64,000 nucleotides of DNA. It comes from an uncultured Rhodobacteraceae bacterium (GTDB lineage: Bacteria > Pseudomonadota > Alphaproteobacteria > Rhodobacterales > Rhodobacteraceae). Where the stretch lies: NCBI GenBank assembly GCA_947495795.1, contig CANMAI010000013.1, positions 48,157 through 112,156 of the forward strand, read 5' to 3'. The position numbers and the translations under genes were made by a program. The notes below the pieces were generated by a model. The model saw only the letters and a list, made by a program, of their open reading frames with translations, ran no database searches and had not been told where the DNA came from. The first letter of the stretch is position 1. Each line of letters starts with the position of its first letter. Positions 10,845 through 30,719 of this stretch are shown one piece after another.

Positions 10845-10873
10845 AAAAAAGCCGGGCAAACCCGCCCGGCTTT
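10845..10873 (-). terminator. rho-independent terminator of the MORN gene
   Basis: Perfect 7-bp stem gccgggc/gcccggc with a 6-nt loop. Read on the minus strand it is followed by a T6 run (the A-run at 10845-10850 on plus). It sits 20 nt downstream of the MORN stop. Confidence 0.7.
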
Positions 10874-10894
10874 CATGTACTTGATGGAAAAAAT

Positions 10895-12331
10895 CTAGTT
10901 GTTTGCGCCGGTCCTGTCTTCTGCCTCGGCGGCTTCAGCTTCATCCTTGCTGGCCTGTTCGCCGCGGGCCCAGTAGCCATCATATTCTTCGCCCGAAGCG
11001 TAGATCATTTTGCCGAGGCCCTGGCGTTGGCCTTTGGTGAAGAAGCCCTGGTATTTATCGCCGTTTGGATAGGTGGCTGTGCCTTCACCATCAATCTCGC
11101 CGCCTTTCCAGCCGCCCTGATACTTGAAGCCATCTGCCATTGTGATGGTACCTGCACCCTCGCGCTGGCCTTGAGCAAATGTGCCCTCATAGACTGTGCC
11201 ATCTGCATAGGTTGCTGTACCGTCGCCGTCCCGAAGACCGTCTTTCCACTGGCCGGAATAGGTGAATCCGTCCTGATACGTCATCGTGCCGAAGCCGTGG
11301 TTGCGTGCGTTCTTGAACTCGCCTTCATAAACAAGGCCGTTCTCGTATTTCGCGATGCCTTTGCCTTCGATCACGCCATCTACCCATCCGCCCTCATACG
11401 AGGAGCCATCGGCATAGGTGATCTTGCCTTCGCCGTGGGCAACATCATTGCGGAAATCGCCTTCGTAGGTTGAACCGTCTGGGTAAGCTACCTTGCCTGT
11501 GCCCTCGATGCGGCCTTCAATCCATTCACCTTCGTAGCGGTAACCATCTGTGCCTGTGAATACACCTGTGCCGGAGCGTTGATCGGCCACGAATGTGCCT
11601 TCGTAAACATCGCCGGAAGCGTATGTTGCGATGCCTTCGCCCTCACGCTGGCCATTGACCAGGGTGCCTTCATACTTGTCGCCATTGGCTTGGATCAGAA
11701 CGCCTGTTCCGTTGATCTGCCCACCAGCCCATGCGCCCGTATAGGTGAGGCCATCGGGCATTGTGAGTGTGCCTGTGCCCGCGCGTACGCCCTGGGAGAT
11801 CTGGCCTTCATAGATGGCACCATCGGGATACACGATCTTGCCTTCGCCATCCTTGATGCCGTTCACCCATGTGCCGGTATAAACATAACCGTTTGGCGAG
11901 GTCATTGTACCGGTTCCGTGGTGGACTGCCTCCTGGAATTCGCCTTCGTAGCGCACGCCATTGGCGTAAACGGCCAGACCGCGACCGCCGATTTTGCCTG
12001 CGACCCATTCACCCTGATAGGTGCCGCCATCGGAGAATACGATCTTGCCTGAACCTTCCGGACGTCCGTTTACGAATGTGCCAGTGTAAACAGAGCCGTT
12101 CGGGAACTTTGCAACGCCTTGGCCTTCAATGCGGCCATCGATCCACTCGCCTTCATACTCATAGCCGTTGGGCAATGTGTATTTGCCGGTTCCGTGCTGT
12201 TTACCGTCCTTGAATTCACCCGTGTAGACCCCGCCCGTATCGTACTGCTTGGTCTGAACTCCGCCTTCCTGTGCGGAAGCCGCTACGGCTGTGACAAGTG
12301 TAGTACCAATCACAAAGGATATATTTTTCAT
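10895..12331 (-). CDS. secreted MORN-repeat protein
   Basis: More than 15 tandem MORN repeats (YxGxxxxGxxxGxG pattern: YTGEFKDGKQHGTGKYTLPNGYEYEGEW...). Sec signal peptide MKNISFVIGTTLVTAVAASAQ if started at the internal ATG 12331. The track ORF extends to 12427. Confidence 0.7.
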   Translation of the reverse strand: MKNISFVIGTTLVTAVAASAQEGGVQTKQYDTGGVYTGEFKDGKQHGTGKYTLPNGYEYEGEWIDGRIEGQGVAKFPNGSVYTGTFVNGRPEGSGKIVFSDGGTYQGEWVAGKIGGRGLAVYANGVRYEGEFQEAVHHGTGTMTSPNGYVYTGTWVNGIKDGEGKIVYPDGAIYEGQISQGVRAGTGTLTMPDGLTYTGAWAGGQINGTGVLIQANGDKYEGTLVNGQREGEGIATYASGDVYEGTFVADQRSGTGVFTGTDGYRYEGEWIEGRIEGTGKVAYPDGSTYEGDFRNDVAHGEGKITYADGSSYEGGWVDGVIEGKGIAKYENGLVYEGEFKNARNHGFGTMTYQDGFTYSGQWKDGLRDGDGTATYADGTVYEGTFAQGQREGAGTITMADGFKYQGGWKGGEIDGEGTATYPNGDKYQGFFTKGQRQGLGKMIYASGEEYDGYWARGEQASKDEAEAAEAEDRTGANN

Positions 12332-18106: not shown

Positions 18107-19432
18107 ATGACCACGACCCGTTTCGCCCCGTCGCCCACGGGCTACCTTCACATCGGCAACATGCGCGCCGCGCTTTTCAACTGGTTGATCGCGCGCAAGG
18201 CTGGTGGCACCTTCATTCTCCGCATTGATGATACGGATGCCGAGCGTTCGGAAGAGCGCTACGTGGATGCGATCCGCGCTGATCTTGAGTGGCTCGGGCT
18301 GGATTGGGATCGGGAGGAGCGGCAATCCACCCGACTTGGTGTCTATGAGGCGGCGGCGGAGCGTCTGCGGGCCGATGGGCGGCTGTATGAGGCATTCGAG
18401 ACACCGGTGGAACTGGACCTCAAGCGCAAGAAACAACTGAATATGGGCAAGCCGCCGGTCTATGACAGAGCTGCCCTGTCGCTTTCTGACGCAGAGAAAG
18501 ATGCATTGCGGGAAGAGCGCGGTGGCCATTGGCGGTTCCTGTTAGAGCGCGAGCGGATCGAATGGGTGGACGGTATTCTCGGGCCGCAATCCATTGATGC
18601 AGCTTCTGTTTCTGATCCGGTTCTGATCCGGGGAGATGGGCAGATGCTCTACACTCTGGCCTCCGTTGTGGATGATACGGAGATGGGGGTTACGGATGTT
18701 GTGCGCGGCTCCGACCATGTGACGAATACGGCCACCCAGATCCAGATTATCGAAGCTTTGGGAGGCGGTTGCCCCACCTTTGCGCATCACTCATTACTCA
18801 CCGGGCCGCAAGGCGAGGCGCTTTCCAAGCGGCTGGGGACACTGGCCTTGCGGGATTTGCGGGATGGGGGCGTTGCGCCCATGGCGATTGTCTCGCTTAT
18901 GGCGCGGCTCGGCTCGGGCGATCCGGTGGAGCTTCGCGGTGCAATGGATGAGGTTATCGAGGGCTTTGATCTCTCGCGCTTTGGCGCCGCCCCGACCAAA
19001 TTTGATGCGGCCGACCTTGACCCACTGACGGCGAGGATCTTGCACGAGACCGCCTATGAGGACGTGGCGGGGCATTTGGCGGAGATCGGCGTGCCCGGAG
19101 ATATCGCCGCTGCTTTCTGGGGTGTGGTTCGGGAGAATATCGGCCGCATGAGCGAGGTGGCCGATTGGTGGGCGCTTTGCCGGGACGGAGCGGCGCCAGT
19201 GATCGAGGCGGAGGATGCTGAATTTGTGGCAGAGGCCTTGGCGGCACTGCCGGAGAAGCCCTGGGATGAAAGCACCTGGGGCGCATGGACGGGAGCCTTG
19301 AAGGCCTCCAGCGGGCGCAAGGGACGTGCTCTCTTCATGCCGCTTCGTAAGGCGCTTACCGGGCAGGCGCATGGGCCGGATATGGGTGCTTTGATGCCAC
19401 TTTTGCAGACTGTTAGGGCCCTTGAACGGTGA
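18107..19432 (+). CDS. gltX: glutamate--tRNA ligase (short, second-copy type)
   Basis: N-terminus TTRFAPSPTGYLHIGNMRAALFNW contains the class-I HIGH motif. 441 aa. Confidence 0.9.
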   Translation: MTTTRFAPSPTGYLHIGNMRAALFNWLIARKAGGTFILRIDDTDAERSEERYVDAIRADLEWLGLDWDREERQSTRLGVYEAAAERLRADGRLYEAFETPVELDLKRKKQLNMGKPPVYDRAALSLSDAEKDALREERGGHWRFLLERERIEWVDGILGPQSIDAASVSDPVLIRGDGQMLYTLASVVDDTEMGVTDVVRGSDHVTNTATQIQIIEALGGGCPTFAHHSLLTGPQGEALSKRLGTLALRDLRDGGVAPMAIVSLMARLGSGDPVELRGAMDEVIEGFDLSRFGAAPTKFDAADLDPLTARILHETAYEDVAGHLAEIGVPGDIAAAFWGVVRENIGRMSEVADWWALCRDGAAPVIEAEDAEFVAEALAALPEKPWDESTWGAWTGALKASSGRKGRALFMPLRKALTGQAHGPDMGALMPLLQTVRALER

Positions 19433-20823
19433 GCGAGCAGGCCAAGTTCCTTGAAGGGAGCCTGATGCGGCATGTGGTGGTGATGTCCACCACGTCTTCT
19501 CTGGGGCTGATGGCTGTTTTCATTGTCGATTTCGTGGACATGATTTTCATCTCCATGCTCGGCAAGGCCGAACTGGCGGCTGCGATTGGCTATGCCGGGG
19601 CGATCCTGTTTTTCACGACCTCAATCAGCATTGGCCTCGCAATCGCGGCCGGGGCTCTGGTGGCGCGCGCTTTGGGGGCTGGAACAGCTGCACGGGCACG
19701 GGAGCTGGCGAGCCATGTGATGGTGGCGGGGTTTGGGCTTGCGGCGGTGTTTGCGGCCCTTGTCTGGTGGAATTTGGCACCATTGGCCGCGCTTGTCGGG
19801 GCGGAGGGAGAGACGCTGGACCTCGCGGTCTCCTACCTCTCGATAATCATCCCTTCCATGCCATTTCTGATGCTCGGCATGGTCGGCGGTGCGATCCTGC
19901 GGGCGCATGGTGATGCAAAGCGGGCGATGTGGGCAACGCTGGCGGGCGGCGCGGTGAACGCTGTGCTCGATCCCATTCTGATTTTCGGGCTGGGGCTGGA
20001 ATTGCAGGGTGCGGCACTCGCCTCTGTTGCGGCTCGGCTGACGATCATGGTGGTGAGTTTGCTGCCAATTCTATGGTATTATGGAGGCTTCGCACCTGTG
20101 CGGATTGGACCGTTTCTGAAAGATGTGCGCCAGATCGGTGGTATCGCCTTTCCGGCCATGCTGACCAATGTGGCAACACCTGTCGGAGCCGCCTATGTGA
20201 CGCGGGAAATGGCGCAGTTTGGCGAAGAAGCTGTGGCCGGGATGGCCATTGTGGGCAGGCTGACGCCTGTAACCTTTGCCTTGATCTTTGCTCTTTCAGG
20301 GGCGATCGGGCCGATCATCGGCCAGAATTACGGAGCGCAGAAACCTGATCGCGTGCGCGAAGCCTTTCGCAACGGGCTGTTGTTTACAGGTGCTTACGTG
20401 GTTTTAGCGGCGCTTGTGCTGTTTCTTCTTCGAGAACCCATTGCAGCACTTTTTGATGCTGACGGCGTGACGCGGAGCCTGATCTTTCTCTTCTGCGGGC
20501 CTTTGGCGCTGGCTTGGTTTTTCAATGGGGTGATCTTCGTGGGCAATGCGGCATTCAACAATTTGGGCCATCCGTTTTACTCGACCACGATAAACTGGGG
20601 GCGAAACACGCTTGGCACGATCCCCTTTGTTGCGTTGGGGGGGTGGGCTTTTGATGCACCGGGAGTGTTGATCGGGCAGGCTGCCGGAGGTGTGATTTTC
20701 GCGATGATCAGTTGGGTGTTGGCACTGCGCATGATGGCGCGGCAGGATCCTGGTGAGTTGCGGGAGCGGGATGTGTTTTCGCGCCGTGCGCGGGTGATGC
20801 AGCTTTTCCACTTGCGGCGGTAA
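19429..20823 (+). CDS. MATE family efflux transporter
   Basis: 464-aa 12-TM protein with the duplicated-halves composition characteristic of MATE/NorM. GTG start overlaps the gltX stop. Confidence 0.7.
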   Translation: MSEQAKFLEGSLMRHVVVMSTTSSLGLMAVFIVDFVDMIFISMLGKAELAAAIGYAGAILFFTTSISIGLAIAAGALVARALGAGTAARARELASHVMVAGFGLAAVFAALVWWNLAPLAALVGAEGETLDLAVSYLSIIIPSMPFLMLGMVGGAILRAHGDAKRAMWATLAGGAVNAVLDPILIFGLGLELQGAALASVAARLTIMVVSLLPILWYYGGFAPVRIGPFLKDVRQIGGIAFPAMLTNVATPVGAAYVTREMAQFGEEAVAGMAIVGRLTPVTFALIFALSGAIGPIIGQNYGAQKPDRVREAFRNGLLFTGAYVVLAALVLFLLREPIAALFDADGVTRSLIFLFCGPLALAWFFNGVIFVGNAAFNNLGHPFYSTTINWGRNTLGTIPFVALGGWAFDAPGVLIGQAAGGVIFAMISWVLALRMMARQDPGELRERDVFSRRARVMQLFHLRR

Positions 20824-20899: not shown

Positions 20900-21358
20900 T
20901 CAGCGCGGTGTTCCGAAGACCTGAACGGCGTATGTTGTGCGGCCACTGGTGGCGGTGCCCACGCCGATTTCTGTGAGGGTTGTGTGCAGGATGTTGCGGC
21001 GATGGCCTTCTGAAGTGAGCCAGCTTTTCAGGAGGGTGGCTGCGAGATTGGAAGAGCTTTCCCCGCTCTGAAAGGCTATGTTTTCTGCGGCTTGCCTGTA
21101 GCGATAGCCGACGCTTGCAAGGCGACCCGTGAGAGATGTGCCATCGGCGGAATGTGAAAGCCTTCCTGCGCGAAGCAACACTTTGGCGTAGCTTTTCGCC
21201 AGCCTTTCCAGCGTGCCGGATCTTGCAAACGGCCGGAGGTTCTGTTGGTTTCTCGCGGTGTTTGTGAGTGTGAAGATCTCATCCGCGAGTGTTGCCGCTG
21301 CCGCTGGTTGAGGGAGGAGTGCCGCACCTCCCGCTATGAGAAAGATGCGGCGCTGCAA
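20900..21358 (-). CDS. secreted CAP/SCP (PR-1-like) domain protein
   Basis: CAP-domain signature motifs (HSADGTSLTGRL..., GHRRNILHTTLTEIGVG). Predicted TTG start at 21358, 3 nt after the prx stop, giving signal peptide MQRRIFLIAGGAALLPQPAAAA. The track ORF extends to 21499, which would overlap prx by about 130 nt. Confidence 0.55.
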   Translation of the reverse strand: MQRRIFLIAGGAALLPQPAAAATLADEIFTLTNTARNQQNLRPFARSGTLERLAKSYAKVLLRAGRLSHSADGTSLTGRLASVGYRYRQAAENIAFQSGESSSNLAATLLKSWLTSEGHRRNILHTTLTEIGVGTATSGRTTYAVQVFGTPR

Positions 21359-21362
21359 GGGG

Positions 21363-22019
21363 TTAGCCTGGTTGCTTTGTCTTGCGGAGATAGGGGAGGA
21401 CCTTATCGAAGTCGCCAAACTTCTCCTTGGCTTCTTCGTCGGAAACCGCTGCTGTGATAATGACATCATCGCCATCCTGCCAATTGGCGGGGGTGGCAAC
21501 CTTGTGTTCAGCTGTCATCTGTATGCTGTCTATAGCCCGGAGGATCTCATCGAAATTCCGGCCTGTTGTCATGGGATAGGTGAGCGAGAGTTTCACCTTC
21601 TTGTCGGGGCCGATAACGAAGACGGAACGCACCGTCTGGTTGTCTGCCGGCGTGCGGTTGGCGGGATCGCCGGAGGCTTCTGCAGGAAGCATGTCGTAGA
21701 GCTTTGCAACCTTCATATCCGGATCGCCAATCATCGGGTAATCTACTGAATTACCGGAATATTTCTGGATATCGGACTTCCACTTCATATGATCTTCAAC
21801 AGGGTCTACCGAGATGCCGAGGATCTTGGTATTGCGCTTGGTAAACTCGCCTTCCATGCCTGCCATAACACCCAGTTCCGTTGTGCAGACGGGTGTGAAA
21901 TCCTTGGGGTGGGAAAAGAGGACGGCGTAGCCATCGCCGACCCACTCGTGGAAGGAAATTTCGCCTGCTGTGGTGTCGGCTGTGAAGTCTGGTGCGGTGT
22001 CGTTGATGCGCAAGGCCAT
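21363..22019 (-). CDS. peroxiredoxin (1-Cys/Prx6-type)
   Basis: DFTPVCTTE peroxidatic-Cys motif. 218 aa. Confidence 0.85.
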   Translation of the reverse strand: MALRINDTAPDFTADTTAGEISFHEWVGDGYAVLFSHPKDFTPVCTTELGVMAGMEGEFTKRNTKILGISVDPVEDHMKWKSDIQKYSGNSVDYPMIGDPDMKVAKLYDMLPAEASGDPANRTPADNQTVRSVFVIGPDKKVKLSLTYPMTTGRNFDEILRAIDSIQMTAEHKVATPANWQDGDDVIITAAVSDEEAKEKFGDFDKVLPYLRKTKQPG

Positions 22020-22116
22020 GATGGGTCCCCCAAAATATTGTGTTCTCTGTGAGAGTGGTGTGGAGAGACGTAAAACGCAAGGTTTCGGATGATGTGGCCT
22101 GTGCTAAACTTGGCAG

Positions 22117-22707
22117 ATGCCGGGGCGTGTTTTCATAGATGCTGGGTTGGATCTTGGTGGGATTGCGGCTGATCCGAGTGTTCCAGAAGCGCGGGTTGAT
22201 GCAGCACCTGGAGAAGAATTTCTTGTTTTATCAGAGGCTTCGCCTGGTATTTTAACGTTGATGCGCTGGGGTATGGTGATGTCTGGCCGCCGGAATGCGC
22301 GGGGCCGGCCTGTGATGGAGACGATTGTGAATGCGCGATCCGAGACCGTTTTTGAGAAATCCGCTTTTGAAGGCGTGAAGCGGGCGGTTCTGCCCGTTTC
22401 CGGCTGGTATGAATGGACGGGCAAACGTGGGCGCAAGCAACGGTGGCGGATCACAGTGCCCGGTGCGCAAGCCCTTCTTTTTGCAGCGATTTACGATGTC
22501 TGGAAGGGGCCGGGCGGCGTGGAGGTGGCGCAGTTCGCGACGCTGACGGTGGAGCCGAATGACGATGTGCGGGAGATCCACCACCGGATGCTGGCACTGC
22601 TTGGGGCGGATGATGTGCCGCGCTGGCTGAGTGGTGGGGCGGGCGCCGATTTGTTGGTGCCTGCCGAGAATGGATTGGTACAGATCGACGCAGTGAGAGA
22701 GCCCTGA
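22117..22707 (+). CDS. SOS-response-associated peptidase (SRAP/YedK/HMCES family) paralog 1, with Pro in place of catalytic Cys2
   Basis: SRAP motifs RWGMV, NARSETV, RAVLPVSGWYEW and IHHRM are present. N-terminus reads MPGRVFIDAG, so position 2 is Pro (codon ccg) rather than the canonical MCGR Cys. Confidence 0.65.
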   Translation: MPGRVFIDAGLDLGGIAADPSVPEARVDAAPGEEFLVLSEASPGILTLMRWGMVMSGRRNARGRPVMETIVNARSETVFEKSAFEGVKRAVLPVSGWYEWTGKRGRKQRWRITVPGAQALLFAAIYDVWKGPGGVEVAQFATLTVEPNDDVREIHHRMLALLGADDVPRWLSGGAGADLLVPAENGLVQIDAVREP

Positions 22708-22818: not shown

Positions 22819-23148
22819 ATGGTTGCGAAGCGGACAAAGGTTGAGGAGAAGGCGCATTCCGAGCTGCTGGTGGAACTGGCGGAGATGGATTTGTGGATGC
22901 AGCAGTTCCGGCTGAAGGAGGGGTACATTCCGGAAGCCTGGGCGGAGATGGAAGACCGCGCCCCGGTGAATGAACCGAAGACGAAGGTTACGATCTCTTT
23001 GGATACGAAAGTGCTGCGCTGGTTCAAGGCGATGGGGCGGGGCTATCAGGCGCGGGTGAATGCGGTGCTGCGCACGTATATGCTCTCGATCCTCTGCAAG
23101 GAGGTCAAGGGGCAGAAGGATGTCGACTGGAAGGGAGAGCCTCTCTGA
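22819..23148 (+). CDS. BrnA-like / DUF4415-type ribbon-helix-helix protein (orphan antitoxin-like)
   Basis: C-terminal motif KTKVTISLDTKVLRWFKAMGRGYQARVNAVLRTYM matches the BrnA/DUF4415 signature (K..vt.RlD.dvl.wfk..G.GYQtriNavLR). Start taken at the internal Met MVAKRTKVEE. No BrnT-like gene is adjacent. Confidence 0.45.
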   Translation: MVAKRTKVEEKAHSELLVELAEMDLWMQQFRLKEGYIPEAWAEMEDRAPVNEPKTKVTISLDTKVLRWFKAMGRGYQARVNAVLRTYMLSILCKEVKGQKDVDWKGEPL

Positions 23149-23242: not shown

Positions 23243-23452
23243 TCAGTCGTCCAGTGCGAGATTTCCTGCGGACTGGCGGCCATCACGACCGGCTTCGAGG
23301 TCGAATGTGACCTTCTGGTTGTCGTCCAGGCCGGAAAGACCTGCGCGCTCTACAGCAGAGATGTGTACGAACACGTCTTTGCCGCCATCATCGGGCTGGA
23401 TGAAGCCGAAGCCCTTAGTTGCGTTGAACCATTTCACTGTGCCCTTGGCCAT
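23243..23452 (-). CDS. cspA: cold-shock protein
   Basis: [34 protein letters not shown] contains the RNP1 and RNP2 motifs of CspA-family proteins. 69 aa. Confidence 0.9.
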
Positions 23453-23918
23453 AGTGAAGTCTCCTCAGTTTTGTGCTGCCCGCATGAGTGCGGCAGCTCG
23501 GCGTAGTCAGCGCAAGATCGAGAACTGAGGCCGAAGACCGGAGACAGTGGGTCGATAGAGGTAACGTAGCAAGCCCCATGTGGGGGTTTTTTGGCTGAAA
23601 AGCAAGATAAATCGGGCAGGAATGTGGTGAGTTGCACGGTTGTTGCGCATACAGGGCAAGGTTTTCCCGCGCGATGAAGCGGCAATTTTTGCTGGTTTTG
23701 GGCAGGTAATTGCGCGGCCGAATTGAGATACGCAGCTTCGTTTCGCGCAGAGGGTCTTTGGTGGGCCCTTTACGTTGAAAGGGTGCTTGTTTGAGCAGCT
23801 TTCTTCACATCGGCATGTGCCGCATTCTTTGCTGTGCGGGGATATCAGGCTGGAGGGAAGGGTTTGGGAAGGAGTATTTTTCCGGCCGTGAGTTGGTATT
23901 GCACGGCCGGATCTGCAG

Positions 23919-24623
23919 TTATTGCTCGTTTGTGGAGAGTTCGCCACTCTCGCCCGCCAGCACAACCTCACCCGTGGGAGAGAGCGCTGTGGTGGGCCAG
24001 CGGGCACCCAGAAGGCGATTGCGGGCGATGCGGGTGACGTTGACCTGATCGGACTGATTGCCGCCAAGAACGTGATAGGCCCCCTGATCTTCGCCGTGGT
24101 AAAAGCCCACATGGCCCTGCCATCCCGATCTGCGATGCCGCCAGAAAACGAGAACGGAGCCACGTTGCGGTGTGCATTCCGTGCCGAATTTGAGCCAGTT
24201 GCGCGCGCCGAGAAGACCGTTGGGCAGCGCCTCACCCGGCAGCATGGAGCCCACGCAATGGCCGACGAAGAGGCCGCACCACGGCACATCATCGCCCGCG
24301 TAATCGATATCGAGATCCTTCGCCATATCCATCAACAGCGGGTTATCACCCGGGCCCGGCGTTTCCTTCGTGCCGATCAGGCGCACGGCTTCCTCGAACC
24401 ACGGCATCGCATCGAAGGACATGGCCTCGCCGGGTGCAGGCTCTCCGAACAGCGCCTTGAAGGTTTGCGGGCCGACGATACCATCGACCAATAATCCGCG
24501 CGCCTCCTGAAACCGTTTGACCGCGTTGATAGTATTGCGTCCGCGGATGCCATCTATCGGGCCGGGGTTGAACCCGTTTTTCTGCAGGCGGATTTGAATG
24601 GATTTCCAGTTTAGAGAACTCAT
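23919..24623 (-). CDS. peptidoglycan-binding domain protein with C-terminal TIGR02594/NlpC-P60-like hydrolase domain (phage-type cell-wall hydrolase)
   Basis: N-terminal PG_binding_1 motif (IDGIRGRNTINAVKRFQEARGLLVDGIVGPQT). C-terminal domain resembles the TIGR02594 family seen in prophage and GTA lysis modules. Confidence 0.6.
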   Translation of the reverse strand: MSSLNWKSIQIRLQKNGFNPGPIDGIRGRNTINAVKRFQEARGLLVDGIVGPQTFKALFGEPAPGEAMSFDAMPWFEEAVRLIGTKETPGPGDNPLLMDMAKDLDIDYAGDDVPWCGLFVGHCVGSMLPGEALPNGLLGARNWLKFGTECTPQRGSVLVFWRHRRSGWQGHVGFYHGEDQGAYHVLGGNQSDQVNVTRIARNRLLGARWPTTALSPTGEVVLAGESGELSTNEQ

Positions 24624-24767
24624 ACTTACCTCCTAATGTAATGGGCGGAGGGTAGCATTGTATTCGTGCTCGCTGAACTTGGGGCTGGGGGCAAGTGTGG
24701 CGAACCTCTCAATTTGAGGCAAAGTGTTGGGGTTGCGGGCAGGTGCCTGATTGCGGAGAGTGCGGCC

Positions 24768-25376
24768 ATGCCCGGACGTTTTGCCCTGACTGCGCCGATT
24801 GGAGAGGTTGCCAAATGGATGGCCTCTGACGGAGCGGCTGTTGAGCGCGAGGGACAGCGATGGAACATAGCACCTTCACAGGAGGTGGTGGTTGCCATGC
24901 CGGGGCGGCGGCTGGAGCGGCTGCGCTGGGGGATGGAGCCGCCCGGGCGGCCGGGGCAGAAAAAGCTGGCCCCCGTGATCAATGCGCGGAGCGAAACGGT
25001 GGCGGAGAAGCCCATGTTTCGCGAGGCCGCACGGATGCGGCGATGCCTTGTGCCCGCGACGGCCTGGTATGAGTGGACACCGGATCGGGATGGCAAACGG
25101 GCGTGGCGTGTGCAGTCTGTTCAGGGGCTGATGGCCTTTGCCGGGATTTATGAGAACGGCTTTTTCGTGACGCTGACTTGTGAGCCCAATGAGCTGATGC
25201 GCAAGTATCACCACCGGATGCCGGTGATCATCTCGCCGGAGAAGTTTGGGCTGTGGCTTGGCGAGGAAGGCAAGGGTGCTGCGCGGCTGATGGTGCCTGC
25301 GCCGGAGGATTTGCTGGTGGTAGGACCCGTTTCGGACCGGATCAACTCCGCCCGGTTCGAAGGCCCCTTGGAGTGA
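24768..25376 (+). CDS. SRAP/YedK-family protein paralog 2, with Pro in place of catalytic Cys2
   Basis: Starts MPGRFALTAPIGEVAKWM (canonical YedK: MCGRFA...). Other motifs conserved: RWGMEPP, NARSETVAEKPMFREA, RRCLVPATAWYEW, YHHRMPVII. Start taken at ATG 24768 inside the track ORF 24666-25376. Confidence 0.75.
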   Translation: MPGRFALTAPIGEVAKWMASDGAAVEREGQRWNIAPSQEVVVAMPGRRLERLRWGMEPPGRPGQKKLAPVINARSETVAEKPMFREAARMRRCLVPATAWYEWTPDRDGKRAWRVQSVQGLMAFAGIYENGFFVTLTCEPNELMRKYHHRMPVIISPEKFGLWLGEEGKGAARLMVPAPEDLLVVGPVSDRINSARFEGPLE

Positions 25377-25440
25377 GATCGGCGGAGGTTCGCGGCTTTG
25401 GATCTCCTCTCTTTTCTCAGCGTTTTGAGCGGGCTATCAT

Positions 25441-26166
25441 GTGCGGATGATAGTGCGATCCTTATGTCTTCTTGTGCTGCTCGCCGGGTGCGAAGTGGTT
25501 CCCGTAACGTCCACAGGCCCGGCGCCTGCGCCGACTGCTGCGGAGGTGACGCGCTCTTCCAAGGCGGCGACCAATTCCTTCCGCCGGAGTGTGCGCCGGA
25601 TTGAGCCGATTGCCGAGCGCAGATGTCGTGCGAAGAACCCTGATTTTCGGGCGCGATCCTGCGATTTCCGGTTTGCGATCAGCAATGACCCGAAGCTGGG
25701 GCGGAACGCGTTCCAATCCATCGGACGGGACGGGCGGCCGCAGGTGACGTTCACGCTGGCGTTGTTGCGGGTGATGCGCAACGACGATGAGGTGGCGTTT
25801 GTGCTGGCGCATGAGGCGGGGCACCAGATCTCGCGGCATCTGCAGAAGGCTTCGGCACAGCAGCAACTGGGTGCGGCACTTCTGGGCGGGTTGCTGGCGG
25901 CCTCGGGTAATGCGAGTGAGCAATCGGTGCGGCAGGCGGCGGGGCTTGGCGCATTTCTCGGTCGGAGGGCCTATTCGAAGAAATTCGAGTTCGAGGCGGA
26001 CCGGCAGGCCGTGTTTATCTCGATGGAGGCGGGCTACGATCCGCTTAAAGGGGCGCAGCCGTTCACGCGGGTGGAAACAGGCACGCGGCAGTTTCTCGGC
26101 ACGCATCCGCCATCGTCGGACAGGCTCCGGCGGATCCAGCGGGCGATCGCTGAAGCGCGCCGTTGA
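25441..26166 (+). CDS. M48-family zinc metalloprotease lipoprotein
   Basis: HEAGH zinc-binding motif. Lipobox LLAGC after the signal peptide MRMIVRSLCLLVLLAGC. Confidence 0.75.
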   Translation: MRMIVRSLCLLVLLAGCEVVPVTSTGPAPAPTAAEVTRSSKAATNSFRRSVRRIEPIAERRCRAKNPDFRARSCDFRFAISNDPKLGRNAFQSIGRDGRPQVTFTLALLRVMRNDDEVAFVLAHEAGHQISRHLQKASAQQQLGAALLGGLLAASGNASEQSVRQAAGLGAFLGRRAYSKKFEFEADRQAVFISMEAGYDPLKGAQPFTRVETGTRQFLGTHPPSSDRLRRIQRAIAEARR

Positions 26167-26201
26167 CGTGCTTTAGGTTTGTCCTGTAGTAGCCTGATAT
26201 A

Positions 26202-26375
26202 TCAGGTATTTTTGACCTTTGAGCGGATCGCGGTGGAGGCGGAGGCCAACGTGCGATCCGTTGTCTCATCCGGTACGGGCACAGTCAGCTTGCGCACACC
26301 GTAAAGGCTGCCAAAGGCAATCGCTGCGGCGAGAACGCCGAGCACGATATCAGACGTGGTGATGAGCTGTTCCAT
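26202..26375 (-). CDS. small single-TM protein (57 aa), not in ORF track
   Basis: My translation: MEQLITTSDIVLGVLAAAIAFGSLYGVRKLTVPVPDETTDRTLASASTAIRSKVKNT*. ATG at 26375 lies 13 nt downstream of the stop of the 26391-26996 gene. Confidence 0.3.
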   Translation of the reverse strand: MEQLITTSDIVLGVLAAAIAFGSLYGVRKLTVPVPDETTDRTLASASTAIRSKVKNT

Positions 26376-26390
26376 GACCCTAATATGCCT

Positions 26391-26903
26391 CTAACGGCCC
26401 TTGTTTTCAAGTTGTGCGAGCAAATCCTCAAAACTTTGCTTACGCTTTGCGATTTTCCGCCCTTCCCGCGCGAGGCGAGAACGACCGTGGATGCTGGTGA
26501 TCGTGCCGACAATGCCCGCGATGGCCAGCAGAATTGCGCCCGGCGCGGCCGCTGCACCGGAAGCAACGGCTCCGTAGAGCAATGCGCCGCCACCGCCGAT
26601 TGTGGCGGCTGTGGAGATGCGGCCAATATAGTAATCGATGGTTGTCATCCGCGTGCTGGCCTGATCCAGACGCTCCTGATCATCGCGGATGAGGGCGCGG
26701 AAGATGTTGGTGACAAGCCGCTGCGCCTCCGGGTTCTGGGAGAAGCTGTGATAGCGATCGACGAATTCGGCCAGGAGCGAGATATCGGAGGCAATCTCGC
26801 CCAGTTCCTCCAGCTTGAGGGAGATACTGGCCTTATCGCCCAGACTGACGGCACGCACATCGTTGAAAAAGCGGGAGGGAAGTGTGGGGGAGACAATCGT
26901 CAT
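26391..26903 (-). CDS. hypothetical protein with C-terminal Gly/Ala-rich hydrophobic hairpin
   Basis: Helical N-terminal region, then TAATIGGGGALLYGAVASGAAAAPGAILLAIAGIVGTITSI (probable 2 TM) and a basic tail. Start uncertain: internal ATG 26903, or the TTG at 26996 used by the track. Confidence 0.4.
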   Translation of the reverse strand: MTIVSPTLPSRFFNDVRAVSLGDKASISLKLEELGEIASDISLLAEFVDRYHSFSQNPEAQRLVTNIFRALIRDDQERLDQASTRMTTIDYYIGRISTAATIGGGGALLYGAVASGAAAAPGAILLAIAGIVGTITSIHGRSRLAREGRKIAKRKQSFEDLLAQLENKGR

Positions 26904-27091
26904 GAAAAGGGGTGTGCTGGGCTTGCTTGTTATTGTTTGCACGACTTTAGGGGAATTGCGGGGAATTGCCAGTGACATGTGTGGCGGCCCGCGCAAAGAC
27001 GTTGGTCGTTATGACAAGGTGGGTTTCCGGCTTGAGGAAGAGGGCAAAGGGCGCGCGTCGGATCAATTGCCGGTGGTGAAGCGGGATGGGG

Positions 27092-27146
27092 TGGTGGGTT
27101 AGCACCCACCCTACAGGCAGCGCGTAGGGTGGGTGTTAACCCACCG
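27092..27146. repeat. REP-like nested hairpins immediately upstream of the RAYT gene
   Basis: cacccaccctac (27104-27115) pairs with gtagggtgggtg (27125-27136) as a perfect 12-bp inverted repeat. Additional ggtgggt/acccacc arms flank it. Confidence 0.6.
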
Positions 27147-27173
27147 TTTACCAAGGCCCGTCACGTTGCGCCC

Positions 27174-27662
27174 ATGTCGAATTACCGTCGCGCCAGGGCT
27201 GCCGGAGCCACCTATTTCTTCACCGTTGCATTGCAGGAGCGTGGCTCCGCGCTTTTGGTGGATCGGATTGACGATCTTCGCGCGGCTTTTTTGAAGGCTA
27301 CCGCGGATGCGCCCGTTCAGGTCGATGCAATGGTGGTTTTGCCTGATCATCTGCATGCTGTGTGGACTTTGCCGCCTGGGGATCGGGATTTCTCGGGCCG
27401 TTGGCAACGTTTGAAGGAGAGTTTCACAAAGTCCACAGGGTTGGAGCGGCCAAGGAGTTATTCAAAACGGGCCAAAGGTGAAAAGGGTGTTTGGCAGCGG
27501 CGGTTTTGGGAGCATCTGGTGCGGGATGAGGCGGATTTCGCGGCGCATGTGGAGTATTGTTGGATCAATCCGGTGAAACATGGGCTGGTGCGCAGTGTGG
27601 CCGATTGGCTGTATTCATCCTTTCAACGGGATGTTCGGAGAGGGATGGTTGCGGCAGATTAG
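27174..27662 (+). CDS. REP-associated tyrosine transposase (RAYT, IS200/IS605 TnpA-like)
   Basis: HuH motif LPDHLHAVW and the conserved Tyr region (WQRRFWEHLVRDEADF) are present. Adjacent REP hairpins. Confidence 0.75.
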   Translation: MSNYRRARAAGATYFFTVALQERGSALLVDRIDDLRAAFLKATADAPVQVDAMVVLPDHLHAVWTLPPGDRDFSGRWQRLKESFTKSTGLERPRSYSKRAKGEKGVWQRRFWEHLVRDEADFAAHVEYCWINPVKHGLVRSVADWLYSSFQRDVRRGMVAAD

Positions 27663-27829
27663 GCCGGACACGCTGAAGACTTTGAGACGATTGGGGAGTG
27701 AGGCAGACGTTTGGAGCAGTGGGTTTCACCCAGCTTACCGATTTACTGCACAGCTTAAGTCCATCCGTCTGGACATTTTTCTCAAAAAGTGTATGCGCAA
27801 TAATGAGTTCGATTTAAGGGAGAGTTACG

Positions 27830-28507
27830 ATGTCATATTACGAAAGAATTGCTAGAGAAGTTAAGAATGCTAAAGACTATTTTCTCAATTGGCCAGCAAA
27901 TGAACCAGTAAAGCTTGGGGACTACGGCTTTTACAATGGTAGAAGGGTGTCATTTGATTGGCAGGGGAATCTCTCGAGCTTCGGTGTGAATCTCGCTCCA
28001 CTTTCTGAAAACCTTCCTATGTCTCAGTCAACACGGAGTGGCGGTTCTGTGGATGTTAAATTTGATTTGCGTAGTTCGACGCCAGCCTCGGCTAGGCTTG
28101 CATTTCGCAAGAAGCATTGCGTTTCGTTTGAATCTCATGGCGGAGTGATTGAAAAGGTTGAAATGGATTTGTTGTTTAAAGCAATTCTGGAACGCATCGG
28201 TATTGGGGAACTCACTTGGAACCCACACTGGGTAGTAGTGACTCAAATCTATAAAGTTGATTCATTTTCCTCGTTTGTCTCGGGTTCGAAAAGTGCGGGT
28301 GCAGAGGTTGTTGCTTCGACGTGCGCACGAACGACACCATTTTCATTGGCAGATCCTTCTGGTGGCCTTAGCATAGGTAATCAATGCCAGATGGCGCACT
28401 GTTCAGTAGCAGAGAGAGGCGCACTACCTTTTTTTGTCATCGGCAAGGTGAAAGGCGAAAAGGACGGGTCCTTGCGAATGGAACGGTACGGCCTGGGCGA
28501 GCGATAG
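27830..28507 (+). CDS. hypothetical protein (225 aa) in a strongly low-GC insert
   Basis: ORF MSYYERIAREVKNAKDYFLNWPANEPVKLGDYGFYNGRRV... with AT-rich codon usage (about 45% GC by eye, against a genome that looks above 60%). No recognisable motif, signal peptide or TM segment. Confidence 0.45.
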   Translation: MSYYERIAREVKNAKDYFLNWPANEPVKLGDYGFYNGRRVSFDWQGNLSSFGVNLAPLSENLPMSQSTRSGGSVDVKFDLRSSTPASARLAFRKKHCVSFESHGGVIEKVEMDLLFKAILERIGIGELTWNPHWVVVTQIYKVDSFSSFVSGSKSAGAEVVASTCARTTPFSLADPSGGLSIGNQCQMAHCSVAERGALPFFVIGKVKGEKDGSLRMERYGLGER

Positions 28508-28522
28508 TTGAGTTGTCTTAAA

Positions 28523-30178
28523 CTATCTCGCGAATTTCTTATACTTGATCCGCTTTGGCTCCACCGCATCCGGCCCCAAGCGCCGGATCTTGTCGGCCTC
28601 GTAGTCCTCGAAATTGCCCTCGAACCATTCCACATGGGCTTCGCCTTCGAAGGCCAGGATGTGGGTGCAGAGGCGGTCGAGGAAGAAGCGGTCGTGGCTG
28701 ATGATGACGGCGCAGCCTGCGAAATCGGCGATGGCGTCTTCGAGGGCGCGGAGGGTTTCGACGTCGAGATCGTTGGTAGGTTCATCCAATAGCAATACGT
28801 TGCCGCCTGCGCGGAGCAGTTTGGCCATGTGCACGCGGTTGCGTTCGCCGCCCGAGAGGAGGCCGATTTTCTTTTGCTGGTCGCCGCCCTTGAAGTTGAA
28901 GGCGGAGACGTAGGCGCGAGAGTTGATCTCGGCGTCGCCGAGTTTGATGATATCCAGCCCGTCCGAGATTTCCTCCCAGACGTTCTTGTCTCCATCCAGC
29001 GCATCCCGGCTTTGATCCACGTAGCTCAGCTCTACCGTGTCGCCGAACTCGATTGTGCCGCCGTCGGGCTGCTCCTGCCCGGTGAGCATGCGGAAGAGGG
29101 TGGATTTGCCTGCTCCGTTGGCTCCGATGACGCCGACGATGCCGCCTGGCGGCAAGGCGAAGGTGAGGCCGTCGATGAGGAGTTTGTCTCCGTAGCCCTT
29201 TTGCAGGTTTTCGACCTCGATGACTTTGGCACCGAGGCGCGGACCGTTGGGGATGACGATCTGGGCGCGCCCGACCTTTTCGCGCTCGGATTGCTCGGCG
29301 AGGTCGTTATAGGCGTTGATGCGGGCCTTCTGCTTGGTCTGGCGGGCTTTCGCGCCTGCGCGAATCCATTCCAGTTCGCGTTCAAGGGTTTTCTGGCGGG
29401 TCTTGTCTTCGCGGGCTTCGTGGGAAAGGCGTTTGGCCTTTTGCTCCAGCCAGGCGGAATAGTTGCCCTCGTAGGGGATACCGCGGCCGCGGTCGAGTTC
29501 CAGGATCCAGCCGGTGATATCATCGAGGAAGTAGCGATCGTGCGTGACGATCAGGATGGTGCCCTTGTACTCGATCAGGTGCTTTTGCAGCCAGGCGATG
29601 GTTTCTGCATCGAGGTGGTTCGTGGGCTCGTCGAGGAGGAGCATATCTGGTGCTTCAAGCAGGAGCTTGCAGAGGGCGACGCGGCGCTTTTCGCCGCCCG
29701 AGAGGGTGGAAACCTCGGCTTCATCGGGCGGGCAGCGGAGGGCTTCCAGCGCGATGTCGATCTGGCTGTCGAGATCCCAGAGGTTCTGCGCATCGATCTG
29801 GTCCTGCAGGGCGGCCATCTCGTCGGCTGTCTCATCGGAGTAATTCATGGCGAGTTCGTTGTAACGAGCCATGAGGTCGCGTTTCTCGGCGACACCTTCC
29901 ATGACATTCTCGCGGACGTTCTTGCTCTCATCAAGCTGGGGTTCCTGCGGAAGGTAGCCGACGCGGGCACCTTCGGCGGCCCAGGCTTCGCCCGTGAACT
30001 CCGTATCCATGCCCGCCATGATGCGCATGAGGGTGGATTTGCCCGCGCCATTGACGCCGACAACGCCGATTTTCACGCCGGGGAGGAAGTTGAGGCGGAT
30101 GTTCTCAAAGCATTTCTTGCCGCCGGGATAGGTTTTGGAGACACCATCCATGAAGTAGACGAATTTGTTGTCGGCCAT
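28523..30178 (-). CDS. ettA: energy-dependent translational throttle protein EttA (ABC-F)
   Basis: Two ABC cassettes with Walker A motifs GVVGVNGAGKST and GVIGANGAGKST, signature LSGGEKRRV/LSGGERNRV, and an ABC-F arm between them. 551 aa. Confidence 0.9.
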   Translation of the reverse strand: MADNKFVYFMDGVSKTYPGGKKCFENIRLNFLPGVKIGVVGVNGAGKSTLMRIMAGMDTEFTGEAWAAEGARVGYLPQEPQLDESKNVRENVMEGVAEKRDLMARYNELAMNYSDETADEMAALQDQIDAQNLWDLDSQIDIALEALRCPPDEAEVSTLSGGEKRRVALCKLLLEAPDMLLLDEPTNHLDAETIAWLQKHLIEYKGTILIVTHDRYFLDDITGWILELDRGRGIPYEGNYSAWLEQKAKRLSHEAREDKTRQKTLERELEWIRAGAKARQTKQKARINAYNDLAEQSEREKVGRAQIVIPNGPRLGAKVIEVENLQKGYGDKLLIDGLTFALPPGGIVGVIGANGAGKSTLFRMLTGQEQPDGGTIEFGDTVELSYVDQSRDALDGDKNVWEEISDGLDIIKLGDAEINSRAYVSAFNFKGGDQQKKIGLLSGGERNRVHMAKLLRAGGNVLLLDEPTNDLDVETLRALEDAIADFAGCAVIISHDRFFLDRLCTHILAFEGEAHVEWFEGNFEDYEADKIRRLGPDAVEPKRIKYKKFAR

Positions 30179-30248
30179 TGCATCCTCCTGCGTGCGTTGG
30201 GGGAGATGTAGCGATAGGTTGCGGAGGGTGCAATCGGGCGTGTGGGAA

Positions 30249-30719
30249 ATGGAACGGTTATCGGAATTGATTGCGCGGGTGGCGCAGCCGGGGCGGGTGG
30301 ACTGGCTTGGAGTACGGCCTGTGCGTAAGGGAGCGGTACGGGTTGTGGAGGCTGCGGAGTTGGGGCTTCGTGGGCTTGAGGGGGATCACGGCACGAGTGA
30401 GAAGCGGGCGCTGACTTTGGTGCAGGCGGAACATCTGGCGGTGATCGGGGCTTATCTTGGGTGCGGGCCGGTGGCAGCGGAGGATTTGCGGCGGAATGTT
30501 GTGGTTTCCGGGATCAATCTGCTGAGCCTGCGGGGGCGCGTTGTGGAGATTGGTGGGGCTGTTGTTGAGGTGACGGGGCCGTGTGCGCCGTGCAGCCGGA
30601 TGGAGGCCGCCTTCGGGCATGGGGGCTATGCGGCTGTGCGCGGGCATGGGGGTGTGACGGCGCGCGTGTTGGAGGTGGGGCGGATTGCCTTGGGGGATGT
30701 GGTGCGGCCCAGAGACTAG
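30249..30719 (+). CDS. MOSC domain-containing protein
   Basis: Conserved Cys in GPCAPCSRM is typical of the MOSC beta-barrel. Start chosen at internal Met MERLSELIARV of the track ORF 30165-30719. Confidence 0.55.
   Translation: MERLSELIARVAQPGRVDWLGVRPVRKGAVRVVEAAELGLRGLEGDHGTSEKRALTLVQAEHLAVIGAYLGCGPVAAEDLRRNVVVSGINLLSLRGRVVEIGGAVVEVTGPCAPCSRMEAAFGHGGYAAVRGHGGVTARVLEVGRIALGDVVRPRD

Follow-up and report, generated by a model that had tools for sequence, protein, structure and literature searches.

The locus described here raises the question of what an SRAP protein becomes when the residue that defines its family has been replaced. The hallmark of SRAPs is an N-terminal cysteine that locks onto abasic sites, and the founding account of the family (PMC3765255) terms this Cys2 'absolutely conserved... 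always the second amino acid'; a large, constrained clade in dominant ocean bacteria nevertheless has proline at this position. Our search of full-text literature found no description of a naturally occurring SRAP that has Pro2 or lacks the cysteine. The gene in question lies in a 64,000-nucleotide stretch (the window) of contig CANMAI010000013.1 from an uncultured Rhodobacteraceae bacterium. Under automated annotation all these Pro2 proteins carry the name 'SOS response-associated peptidase / abasic site processing protein'; the product of this gene is in addition truncated, beginning only at Met49.

The open reading frame begins at the first start codon following an in-frame stop, with ATG CCG GGG CGT (MPGR), and encodes 196 amino acids. 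SRAP (PF02586) is the sole Pfam match of this protein (E 6.5e-32, 111 bits against a cut-off of 27.1 bits), the AF2 model (pLDDT 91.4, pTM 0.89) has the SRAP fold, and the top 21 Foldseek matches in the PDB, 21 of 21 significant ones, are SRAP structures at TM ~0.7. The four motifs listed in the first-pass annotation were all recovered in the translation: RWGMV (residues 50-54), NARSETV (72-78), LPVSGWYEW (92-100) and IHHRM (154-158). In the closest relative, L081 (MAG GCA_039817715.1), the ortholog also starts with MPGR, its proline codon differing synonymously (CCA, CCG here). Ka/Ks between the two genes is 0.17 over the whole length and 0.22 over codons 1-48, with no indels. The gene is thus intact and selectively maintained. 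The public NCBI protein (P0001, 148 aa) is 100% identical across 76% of the 196-aa query and starts at Met49, without the MPGR N-terminus; a product begun there would miss the first four predicted strands (E4-7, E26-29, E34-39 and most of E46-51). Upstream of the ATG at 22117 there is neither a Shine-Dalgarno sequence nor a promoter consensus; the hexamer TAAACT (22105-22110), 6 nt upstream of the ATG, is conserved in L081. The features of the locus are collected in Table 1.

Table 1. Features of the Pro2 SRAP locus (window coordinates; A1, alignment of 32 sequences)
Feature	Coordinates	Strand	Basis
gltX and MATE-family gene, upstream synteny anchors	18107..20823	+	tblastn
CAP-domain ORF, maximal; true start probably downstream of prx overlap	20900..21499	-	Pfam CAP E 1.2e-15
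1-Cys peroxiredoxin gene (prx), divergent neighbour	21363..22019	-	Pfam AhpC-TSA and 1-cysPrx_C
Divergent intergenic region prx/SRAP, 97 bp	22020..22116	.	LexA and sigma-70 scans
Type-1 Pro2 SRAP gene, 196 aa (MPGR...VREP)	22117..22707	+	ORF, Pfam, homologs, synteny, AF2
Codon 2, CCG = Pro, aligned with catalytic Cys2 of YedK/HMCES	22120..22122	+	profile alignment mPGr/MCGR
Met49 codon, public NCBI protein start (148 aa, without MPGR N-terminus)	22261..22263	+	P0001
Loop G57-T69 (GRRNARGRPVMET), Arg-rich, type-1-specific, in place of YedK Trp67/Trp68 DNA-wedge loop	22285..22323	+	A1
N72-A73-R74, YedK Asn75 and Arg77 equivalents	22330..22338	+	A1, YedK alignment
E99, YedK Glu105 equivalent	22411..22413	+	A1, YedK alignment; role PMC9436759
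T144, YedK Thr149 equivalent, phosphate contact	22546..22548	+	A1, YedK alignment, PMC6821365
H155-H156-R157-M158-L159, YedK His160...Arg162 equivalents	22579..22593	+	A1, YedK alignment
BrnA-antitoxin-like gene, 109 aa from Met24 of 132-aa ORF, 3' of SRAP gene	22819..23148	+	Pfam BrnA_antitoxin
Cold-shock protein gene (csp), downstream synteny anchor	23243..23452	-	Pfam CSD
Type-2 Pro2 SRAP gene, 202 aa, MPGRFALT...	24768..25376	+	Pfam E 3.7e-45; P0121
ABC-F ATPase gene, downstream synteny anchor	28526..30250	-	78.6% identity to L012 ABC-F

That the change from cysteine to proline is a maintained trait of the lineage, and neither a one-off lesion nor a sequencing error, had been proposed from this locus alone, and is now strongly supported by comparison across genomes. 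Of the 120 database proteins nearest to this one, 110 start with MPGR. The start codon (ATG, GTG or TTG) is followed by PGR in each of 79 complete orthologous loci, those verified among the best 80 and all from the Roseobacter group or unclassified marine MAGs; in these 79, codon 2 is always proline, with CCG, CCC, CCA and CCT all in use. The clade's two peptide motifs matched at least 584 species-level genomes, Pro2 having been checked in the best 80 loci (79 verified). Invariant in the alignment of 32 sequences (A1) are M1, P2, G3, R4, N72, R74, E99, T144, H155 and R157. Conservation at the codon level across loci, together with Ka/Ks, led us to reject the pseudogene, out-of-frame N-terminus or codon-2 error that had been envisaged for this gene. 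In Maritimibacter, Tropicibacter and Pseudaestuariivita, the Cys2 form occurs in one species and the Pro2 form in another. Two Cys2 proteins, P0258 and P0329, are placed beside the Pro2 clade. NCBIfam holds no dedicated family for Pro2 SRAPs, its YedK model matching weakly and far under the cut-off, and among PLSDB plasmids neither SRAP of the window has a relative above 40% identity.

The original argument for a maintained trait was the presence of a second MPGR SRAP about 2 kb away. Such a gene does exist, 2 kb downstream, but two neighbouring paralogs are weaker evidence for the maintenance of Pro2 than conservation throughout the clade. The two proteins are 37% identical over their full length, and the second (type 2) belongs to a rare separate type and is not a simple recent duplicate of the type-1 gene. 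Its only close relatives are P0122 and the second gene of locus L005; its C-terminal half resembles Rhodobacterales Cys2 SRAPs, the closest of which share 47% identity with it. In neighbour-joining trees (200 bootstraps) the three type-2 sequences cluster in 82% of replicates, and join the type-1 clade (with up to 3 Cys2 intruders) in only 39%. Residues 101-150 are nearer type 1, while 51-100 and 151-202 are nearer Cys2 proteins; with segment identities so mixed and no evident breakpoint, the idea that the gene is a straightforward type 1-Cys2 chimera was rejected. Recent gene conversion of the 5' ends was also rejected, as the first codons differ synonymously and divergence sets in directly after codon 5.

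The genomic setting is not the small accessory islet that had been suspected. The type-1 gene occupies a conserved core-chromosome position, being the syntenic ortholog in the roseobacter order gltX-MATE-...-SRAP-csp-ABC-F; tblastn placed gltX upstream on the same side in 37 of 80 loci and MATE in 25 of 80, and csp lies downstream on the opposite strand in 55 of 80. Only the second copy is covered by a lineage-specific insertion, situated in the csp-ABC-F interval. The divergent prx, 97 bp upstream, and the CAP-domain gene behind it are where the first-pass annotation had put them. This arrangement is local: prx is paired with the SRAP gene in L081 and in 0 of 80 clade loci, and the CAP-domain gene is absent from all 80. 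A 109-aa BrnA-antitoxin-like homolog stands at the equivalent position in L081. In 56 of 80 loci a GDSL/TesA-like esterase gene of the same strand ends 0-77 nt before the SRAP gene, which is usually the second gene. No link to repair genes was found in these neighbourhoods, and SOS or translesion genes are absent near the SRAP gene, both here (prx/CAP) and elsewhere (GDSL esterase, ABC transporter, csp).

The alphaproteobacterial LexA box has the form GTTC-N7-GTTC. With at most one mismatch it does not occur in the intergenic region between prx and SRAP, where a LexA or other stress promoter had been looked for on the advice of the first-pass annotation, and the sigma-70 scan of the same region gave no consensus site. 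Control of the gene by LexA and the SOS response was rejected on these grounds. In the whole window, this pattern has 59 matches against 43 expected at the same tolerance.

The N-terminal third of the protein deserves separate comment, since residues 5-50 had been held to be unrelated to YedK and to the second paralog. This proved wrong: BLASTP pairs both paralogs from residue 1, the clade profile aligns with YedK end to end, likewise starting at residue 1, and ARVDAAPGEEFLVLS matches the PRxNIAPGEE block of the family. Only residues about 8-24 are lineage-specific, with a 5-residue deletion and no predicted helix; this stretch is common to L081 and lies within the codons under purifying selection. 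The N-terminal third is homologous and fast-evolving yet constrained, not noise. The protein is an atypical member of its clade, having both this degenerate helix-1 region and leucine at position 159, where Cys2 SRAPs have proline and most Pro2 SRAPs glycine.

A second Pro2 clade, comprising 28 MPGR proteins, occurs in Chloroflexota and retains N, R, E and H. The change from cysteine to proline at residue 2, which takes two nucleotide changes from TGY, arose independently at least twice, in Rhodobacterales and in Chloroflexota. In the two Pro2 clades, glycine takes the place of the H-x-R-M-P proline in 68% and 96% of the proteins, against proline in 100% and 87% for the respective Cys2 sister groups; controls with swapped labels gave zero columns with such a co-change.

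How, then, might a proline take the part of the catalytic cysteine? The rest of the pocket is largely in place, the YedK residues with kept equivalents being Arg4, Asn75, Arg77, Glu105, Trp106, Thr149, His160 and Arg162. The active-site Asn75, Glu105 and His160 are present as N72, E99 and H155, and the phosphate-binding set Arg77, Thr149, Arg162 and Arg4 as R74, T144, R157 and R4. In YedK, R77, T149 and R162, and also R4, bind phosphate and are essential for ssDNA binding (PMC6821365). In YedK the first nucleophilic attack comes from the alpha-amine of residue 2; the C2A mutant gives a Schiff base that borohydride can trap, but no crosslink, and acts as a Glu105-dependent AP-lyase (PMC9436759). 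According to work cited in the same paper (PMC9436759), the N-terminal proline of Fpg is a Schiff-base nucleophile. Mycobacterial Nei2 acts on single-stranded DNA as an AP beta-lyase (PMC11323726).

By analogy with these enzymes, we infer a lyase or transient-adduct step for Pro2 SRAPs. The protein reads Met-Pro-Gly at its N-terminus, a context accepted by methionine aminopeptidase, which would remove Met1 and bare Pro2. The secondary amine of Pro2, aided by Glu99 and His155, would then attack C1' of the ring-opened abasic site in ssDNA and yield an iminium (Schiff-base) adduct. Because the thiol is absent, the thiazolidine ring cannot close and no stable crosslink of the YedK/HMCES type can form; the adduct would resolve either via beta-elimination, the strand being cut by AP-lyase action as it is by YedK C2A and by Fpg/Nei, or by hydrolysis, amounting to a transient, reversible cap. 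A purely lyase role would need a particular context. That the type-1 protein has exchanged the N-terminal nucleophile Cys2 for proline, keeping the abasic pocket and most DNA contacts, and acts through an iminium as a lyase or reversible cap seems to us to have a somewhat better than even chance of being correct. The broader proposal, that Pro2 SRAPs form a separate catalytic class of the superfamily, with N-terminal-proline iminium chemistry (AP-lyase or reversible cap) reached convergently at least twice along with the Pro to Gly change, is put forward more tentatively, at a little under even chances.

It could be argued instead that the protein is a pseudoenzyme, a non-catalytic binder of abasic sites or ssDNA in which Pro2 has done away with covalent chemistry; it would recognise or shield lesions, or compete with a Cys2 SRAP, and form no iminium. 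The thiol on which the family's hallmark crosslink depends is indeed lost, the DNA-contact residues are retained, and the YedK variants E105A and H160A are still good DNA binders (PMC6821365), so that binding is separable from chemistry. Plain loss of function, however, would not fix one particular residue, and Pro2, invariant in over 100 proteins, has at least two origins, with two nucleotide changes from TGY required each time. Moreover, Glu99 and His155, which chemistry needs and binding does not, are invariant, and the convergent second-shell change from proline to glycine suggests an active site re-tuned, not given up. We regard this explanation as unlikely, though deserving of consideration.

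Less likely again is a changed substrate, the N-terminal proline acting on a small-molecule or lipid-derived aldehyde or on an RNA lesion. Such a reading draws on the GDSL esterase operon, on the absence of repair genes nearby and on the DNA-binding surface of type 1. YedK W67 and W68 are required for ssDNA binding (PMC6821365), and this aromatic wedge loop is absent from type 1, type 2 likewise lacking the aromatic pair; the type-1 loop (G57, N60, A61, R62, R64 and P65 invariant in A1) stands in its place, and the C-terminal V-x-x-V-N-S segment is missing from the clade. Because of the loss of both elements, the DNA-binding mode of type 1, and even its substrate, may differ from those of YedK. 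On the other hand, Arg4, Arg74, Thr144 and Arg157 are invariant, and mutation of their YedK equivalents weakens or abolishes ssDNA binding; the new Arg-rich loop suits a polyanion. The Chloroflexota proteins keep a Trp-containing loop (…PSW…) at the place of Trp67/Trp68 and have unrelated neighbours, so that the GDSL link is lineage-specific synteny and no rule of the family. Artefact or decay, that is a codon-2 sequencing error, a true start at Met49 or a pseudogene with N-terminal noise, is hardly credible: the 148-aa NCBI product, the missing Shine-Dalgarno and promoter consensus and the degenerate helix-1 region speak for it, but the MPGR start with a synonymous codon in L081, the low Ka/Ks without indels over codons 1-48, the start codon and PGR of all 79 loci and the loss of four strands from a Met49 product speak against it.

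If iminium chemistry is indeed what Pro2 serves, the Roseobacter group treats abasic sites of single-stranded DNA in the opposite way to YedK and HMCES, which crosslink and protect them. As Pro2 is found in both the Roseobacter clade and an independent Chloroflexota clade, evolution would have moved the SRAP scaffold repeatedly to chemistry lacking the hallmark crosslink. Since YedK C2A is an AP lyase, natural Pro2 SRAPs offer a direct test of whether a 'protective crosslinker' can be made into a 'cutter' or a reversible cap, and of the second-shell changes that such a conversion needs.

Compared with known systems, the protein shares with YedK and HMCES the fold (TM ~0.7), the SRAP domain and, as predicted, the placing of residue 2 at the mature N-terminus; it differs in having Pro2 for Cys2, which makes the thiazolidine crosslink chemically impossible. 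Where YedK has the Trp67/Trp68 loop the type-1 clade has GRxNARGRPVMET; YedK has proline (Pro164) after H-x-R-M, where the Pro2 clade mostly has glycine and our protein leucine, and the V-x-x-V-N-S segment of YedK has no counterpart in type 1. The association of YedK/HMCES-type genes with the SOS response, through an SOS box or SOS-gene neighbours, is absent for this gene. Rhodobacterales Cys2 SRAPs (such as those of Donghicola, Maritimibacter sp. HL-12 and Tropicibacter sp. S64), from the same order as our organism, are the closest Cys2 relatives of the second paralog and share its C-terminal half, but retain the MCGR start, the aromatic S-W-Y-K loop and H-x-R-M-P. The N-terminal proline alone brought to mind the tautomerase superfamily (4-OT/MIF, catalytic Pro1), which has a beta-alpha-beta fold; membership was rejected, there being no Pfam or structural match. 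With Fpg/Nei, including Nei2, in which the N-terminal proline exposed by removal of Met attacks the abasic C1', the likeness is one of proposed mode and not of membership, as those enzymes have an H2TH and a zinc or zincless finger, whereas our protein has the beta-barrel-like SRAP fold, no homology to them and no H2TH match. The best experimental model of how a natural Pro2 SRAP may act is given by the YedK mutants C2A and C2S, which like Pro2 SRAPs lack a thiol at position 2; their N-terminal amine still joins the abasic site in a Schiff base, followed by Glu105-dependent AP-lyase cleavage and no crosslink (PMC9436759). These mutants, however, have a primary amine in an unadapted pocket, while Pro2 SRAPs combine a secondary amine with co-evolved changes in the second shell.

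The open reading frame at 22117-22707 (plus strand), here called paralog 1, encodes a protein that clearly belongs to the SRAP superfamily by its fold and most of its active-site residues, but that lacks the nucleophile defining the SRAP family, having proline (Pro2) where YedK and HMCES carry the catalytic cysteine (Cys2). The frame begins at the first start codon past an in-frame stop and specifies 196 amino acids opening with MPGR (ATG CCG GGG CGT); its product matches Pfam SRAP (PF02586) over residues 23-173 with an E value of 6.5e-32. All motifs named in the first-pass annotation were found (RWGMV at 50-54, NARSETV at 72-78, LPVSGWYEW at 92-100, IHHRM at 154-158), as was the second MPGR-starting SRAP gene that it had reported, paralog 2 (Pfam E 3.7e-45). 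The two products align over their full length with 37% identity.

It had also been proposed that the N-terminal residues of paralog 1 are unrelated to canonical YedK and to paralog 2, which our alignments contradict. Residues 24-40 (ARVDAAPGEEFLVLS) line up with the family block PRxNIAPGEE in a 32-sequence clade alignment, and the clade profile matches E. coli YedK from the very first residue, with mPGr over MCGR. The most variable stretch of the clade comprises residues ~8-24, where the window lineage has a 5-residue deletion and the AlphaFold2 model predicts no helix. That model, built from the alignment, has a mean pLDDT of 91.4 and pTM of 0.89, and all 21 of its significant PDB matches are SRAP structures (YedK, HMCES, BT_1218, BB2244 and others), with TM of ~0.7. 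Nor did we find the out-of-frame noise expected of a pseudogene. The closest relative (P0002, from locus L081 of MAG GCA_039817715.1) is also 196 residues long and 78% identical without indels; Ka/Ks between the two genes (Nei-Gojobori) is 0.17 across the whole gene, with codons 1-48 at 0.22 and codons 49-196 at 0.13, and the proline codon itself differs synonymously (CCG in the window, CCA in L081). Paralog 1 is an intact gene, and its N-terminal third is not noise.

The public NCBI protein, P0001, has only 148 residues and begins at Met49 (window position 22261), so that the N-terminal MPGR and roughly a quarter of the fold are missing from it. Codon conservation in L081, the clade and YedK alignments and the AlphaFold2 model show that the start was called too far downstream, truncating the protein. 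Homologs mis-started likewise in the database include P0003, P0017, P0022, P0050 and P0128.

The suggestion that the Cys-to-Pro change is a maintained lineage trait proved correct and even understated. MPGR opens 110 of the 120 best database matches, and most of the others are mis-called starts with PGR inside. With one genome per species, relatives matching the clade motifs GWYEWTG and T[IL][VI]NARSET occur in at least 584 genomes; the best 80 loci all come from the Roseobacter group/Paracoccaceae (Ruegeria, Sulfitobacter, Yoonia, Loktanella, Shimia, Marivita, Silicimonas, Sedimentitalea and Roseobacter among others) or from unclassified marine MAGs. Codon 2 encodes proline in each of the 79 of these loci with a complete 5' end, all four proline codons being used, behind ATG (65), GTG (11) or TTG (3) starts. 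The Pro2 observation is genuine and lies well outside what chance would give. Invariant in the 32-sequence alignment are M1, P2, G3, R4, P31, N72, R74, E76, T77, E99, W100, T144, H155, H156 and R157; their YedK counterparts, Cys2 (now Pro), Arg4, Pro40, Asn75, Arg77, Glu105, Trp106, Thr149, His160 and Arg162, were shown experimentally to bind ssDNA or to act in catalysis (PMC6821365; PMC9436759). The founding description of the family calls the cysteine 'absolutely conserved' and 'always the second amino acid' (PMC3765255). Our full-text literature search turned up no description of a natural SRAP that carries Pro2 or lacks the cysteine, and NCBIfam holds no dedicated model for Pro2 SRAPs, which bear generic names such as SOS response-associated peptidase or abasic site processing protein. 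A neighbor-joining (NJ) tree places two Cys2 (MCGR) proteins, P0258 and P0329, beside the roseobacter Pro2 clade or within it; they could represent the ancestral state or a reversion.

Placement of the gene in an accessory islet could not be upheld for paralog 1. The gene order at the 80 loci runs gltX, MATE, FtsX-type permease (-), ABC ATPase (-), GDSL/TesA-like esterase (+), Pro2 SRAP (+), csp (-) and ABC-F (-). In 56 loci (L012 and L030 among them) the GDSL gene shares the strand of the SRAP gene and ends 0-77 nt ahead of the SRAP start, and in 55 csp follows on the opposite strand. Since the window retains gltX, MATE, csp and ABC-F (78.6% identity), paralog 1 is a syntenic ortholog at a core position. 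In place of the permease/ATPase/GDSL block the window carries the CAP-domain and peroxiredoxin genes, both confirmed by Pfam as the neighbours previously noted; neither occurs in any of the 80 loci, while L081 has the peroxiredoxin and the same prx/SRAP/BrnA/csp arrangement as the window. The stretch between csp and ABC-F (23500-28520) has no counterpart in other loci and looks like a lineage-specific insertion. The BrnA-antitoxin-like gene has no adjacent BrnT toxin frame; it occupies the same place in L081, with weaker matches near the SRAP gene in 8 of the 80 loci. The roseobacter esterase is divergent from the ABC ATPase and FtsX-permease pair, a layout resembling that of E. coli tesA-ybbA-ybbP.

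Coordinates of the SRAP genes and surrounding features
Feature	Position	Strand	Remark
gltX	18107-19432		window
MATE	19429-20823		window
CAP-domain ORF			window; behind peroxiredoxin; Pfam
1-Cys peroxiredoxin	21363-22019	-	window; 97 bp upstream of paralog 1, divergent; Pfam
Paralog 1	22117-22707	+	window; type-1 Pro2 SRAP
BrnA-antitoxin-like	22819-23148	+	window; downstream of paralog 1; Pfam
Cold-shock gene (csp)	23243-23452	-	window; Pfam
PG-binding/CHAP protein	23919-24623	-	window; csp-to-ABC-F stretch
Paralog 2	24768-25376	+	window; type-2 Pro2 SRAP
M48 peptidase	25441-26166		window; csp-to-ABC-F stretch
ORF without family match	26391-26996	-	window; csp-to-ABC-F stretch
REP-associated tyrosine transposase	27129-27662		window; csp-to-ABC-F stretch; NCBIfam E 5.7e-53
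ORF without family match	27830-28507	+	window; csp-to-ABC-F stretch
ABC-F	28526-30250		window
Type-1 SRAP	10001-10626		L005 (marine MAG)
Type-2 SRAP	10627-11217		L005
Chloroflexota Pro2 gene	5001-5672		L084
Chloroflexota Pro2 gene	5001-5687		L085

A LexA-controlled or other stress promoter had been suspected upstream of paralog 1. The alphaproteobacterial LexA box is GTTC-N7-GTTC; allowing one mismatch, we found none within 22020-22116, nor any sigma-70-like site there. The hexamer TAAACT (22105-22110), 6 nt ahead of the ATG, is kept in L081 despite a diverged intergenic region, and no Shine-Dalgarno sequence is visible before the ATG. TAAACT could be the -10 element of a leaderless mRNA.

Paralog 2 represents a rare second type, of which we found three examples, all with Pro2: the window gene, P0122 (70% identity, from a metagenome contig) and a gene of locus L005. 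Apart from the window's genome, only the MAG of L005 was seen to carry both Pro2 types; there they stand directly in tandem, the TAG stop of the first gene overlapping the GTG start of the second. The C-terminal half of type 2 (FGLWLGEEGKGAARLM...V..INSARFEGP) is like that of Cys2 SRAPs and absent from type 1, and the next-best relatives are Rhodobacterales Cys2 SRAPs (47% identity). In NJ trees computed with the first five residues left out, the three sequences form one clade (82% bootstrap), yet just 39% of replicates unite this clade with type 1 while admitting few Cys2 intruders; segment-wise identities of paralog 2 to type 1 versus Cys2 proteins are mixed. Type 2 may have split off early within the Pro2 lineage, or it may have exchanged Cys for Pro independently. 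The 5' ends of the paralogs bear no sign of recent gene conversion.

Among 50%-identity representatives, several MPG(R/L) proteins lie outside the roseobacter clade. One of them, P0308, led to a second Pro2 clade of 28 MPGR proteins (P0308, P0403-P0430), some members being annotated as Anaerolineales and one as Phototrophicales (Chloroflexota). All 28 keep the Asn, Arg, Glu and His, and MCGR proteins of the same phylum surround them in similarity space. This clade is independent of the roseobacter one. Its gene neighbours vary: the SRAP gene may come straight after an MFS transporter, or scpA may precede it by 5 nt. Scattered Pro2 SRAPs outside both clades, all metagenomic, include P0293, P0321, P0348 (MPGL, a cluster of 11 sequences) and P0252 (MPGT). 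When roseobacter Pro2 (111 sequences), Rhodobacterales Cys2 (85), Chloroflexota Pro2 (28) and Chloroflexota Cys2 (87) groups were compared, only three columns had a residue that the two Pro2 groups share and that is rare in either Cys2 group: position 2, Asp127 and the residue after H-x-R-M. At the last of these, 68% of roseobacter and 96% of Chloroflexota Pro2 proteins have Gly, against Pro in 100% and 87% of the respective Cys2 groups. Nine columns, including position 2, are conserved in both Cys2 groups and altered in both Pro2 groups; two swapped-label controls gave none. These shared changes indicate an active site that was re-tuned rather than decayed. The window protein has Leu159 after H-x-R-M (22591-22593) and its closest relative Pro, hence this sub-lineage is atypical.

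Methionine aminopeptidase removes Met in a Met-Pro-Gly context, so a mature Pro2 SRAP would be expected to expose an N-terminal proline. In the YedK reaction a Schiff base arises first, by attack of the residue-2 alpha-amine on the ring-opened abasic site, and closure of the thiazolidine by the Cys thiol follows; the thiol-less C2A and C2S variants form no crosslink, give a borohydride-trappable Schiff base and cleave DNA by a Glu105-dependent lyase activity (PMC9436759). The nucleophile of Fpg/Nei is an N-terminal proline (reference in PMC9436759), and Nei2 is an AP beta-lyase on ssDNA (PMC11323726). By analogy with these enzymes, the N-terminal proline of Pro2 SRAPs would react with abasic sites in DNA to an iminium, resolved by beta-elimination or hydrolysis, and the proteins would most likely act as AP lyases or reversible caps rather than long-lived crosslinkers. 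Against this proposal, type 1 lacks both the C-terminal motif and the Trp67/Trp68 wedge loop (an Arg-rich loop stands instead; role of the wedge loop in YedK, PMC6821365), and neither Pro2 clade has repair-related neighbours. Pro2 SRAPs might instead be non-catalytic binders, a reading which we regard as unlikely given the apparent re-tuning of the active site. Less probable still seems a different substrate with a link to the GDSL esterase. That Pro2 is an artefact is hardly credible given its recurrence with synonymous codons.
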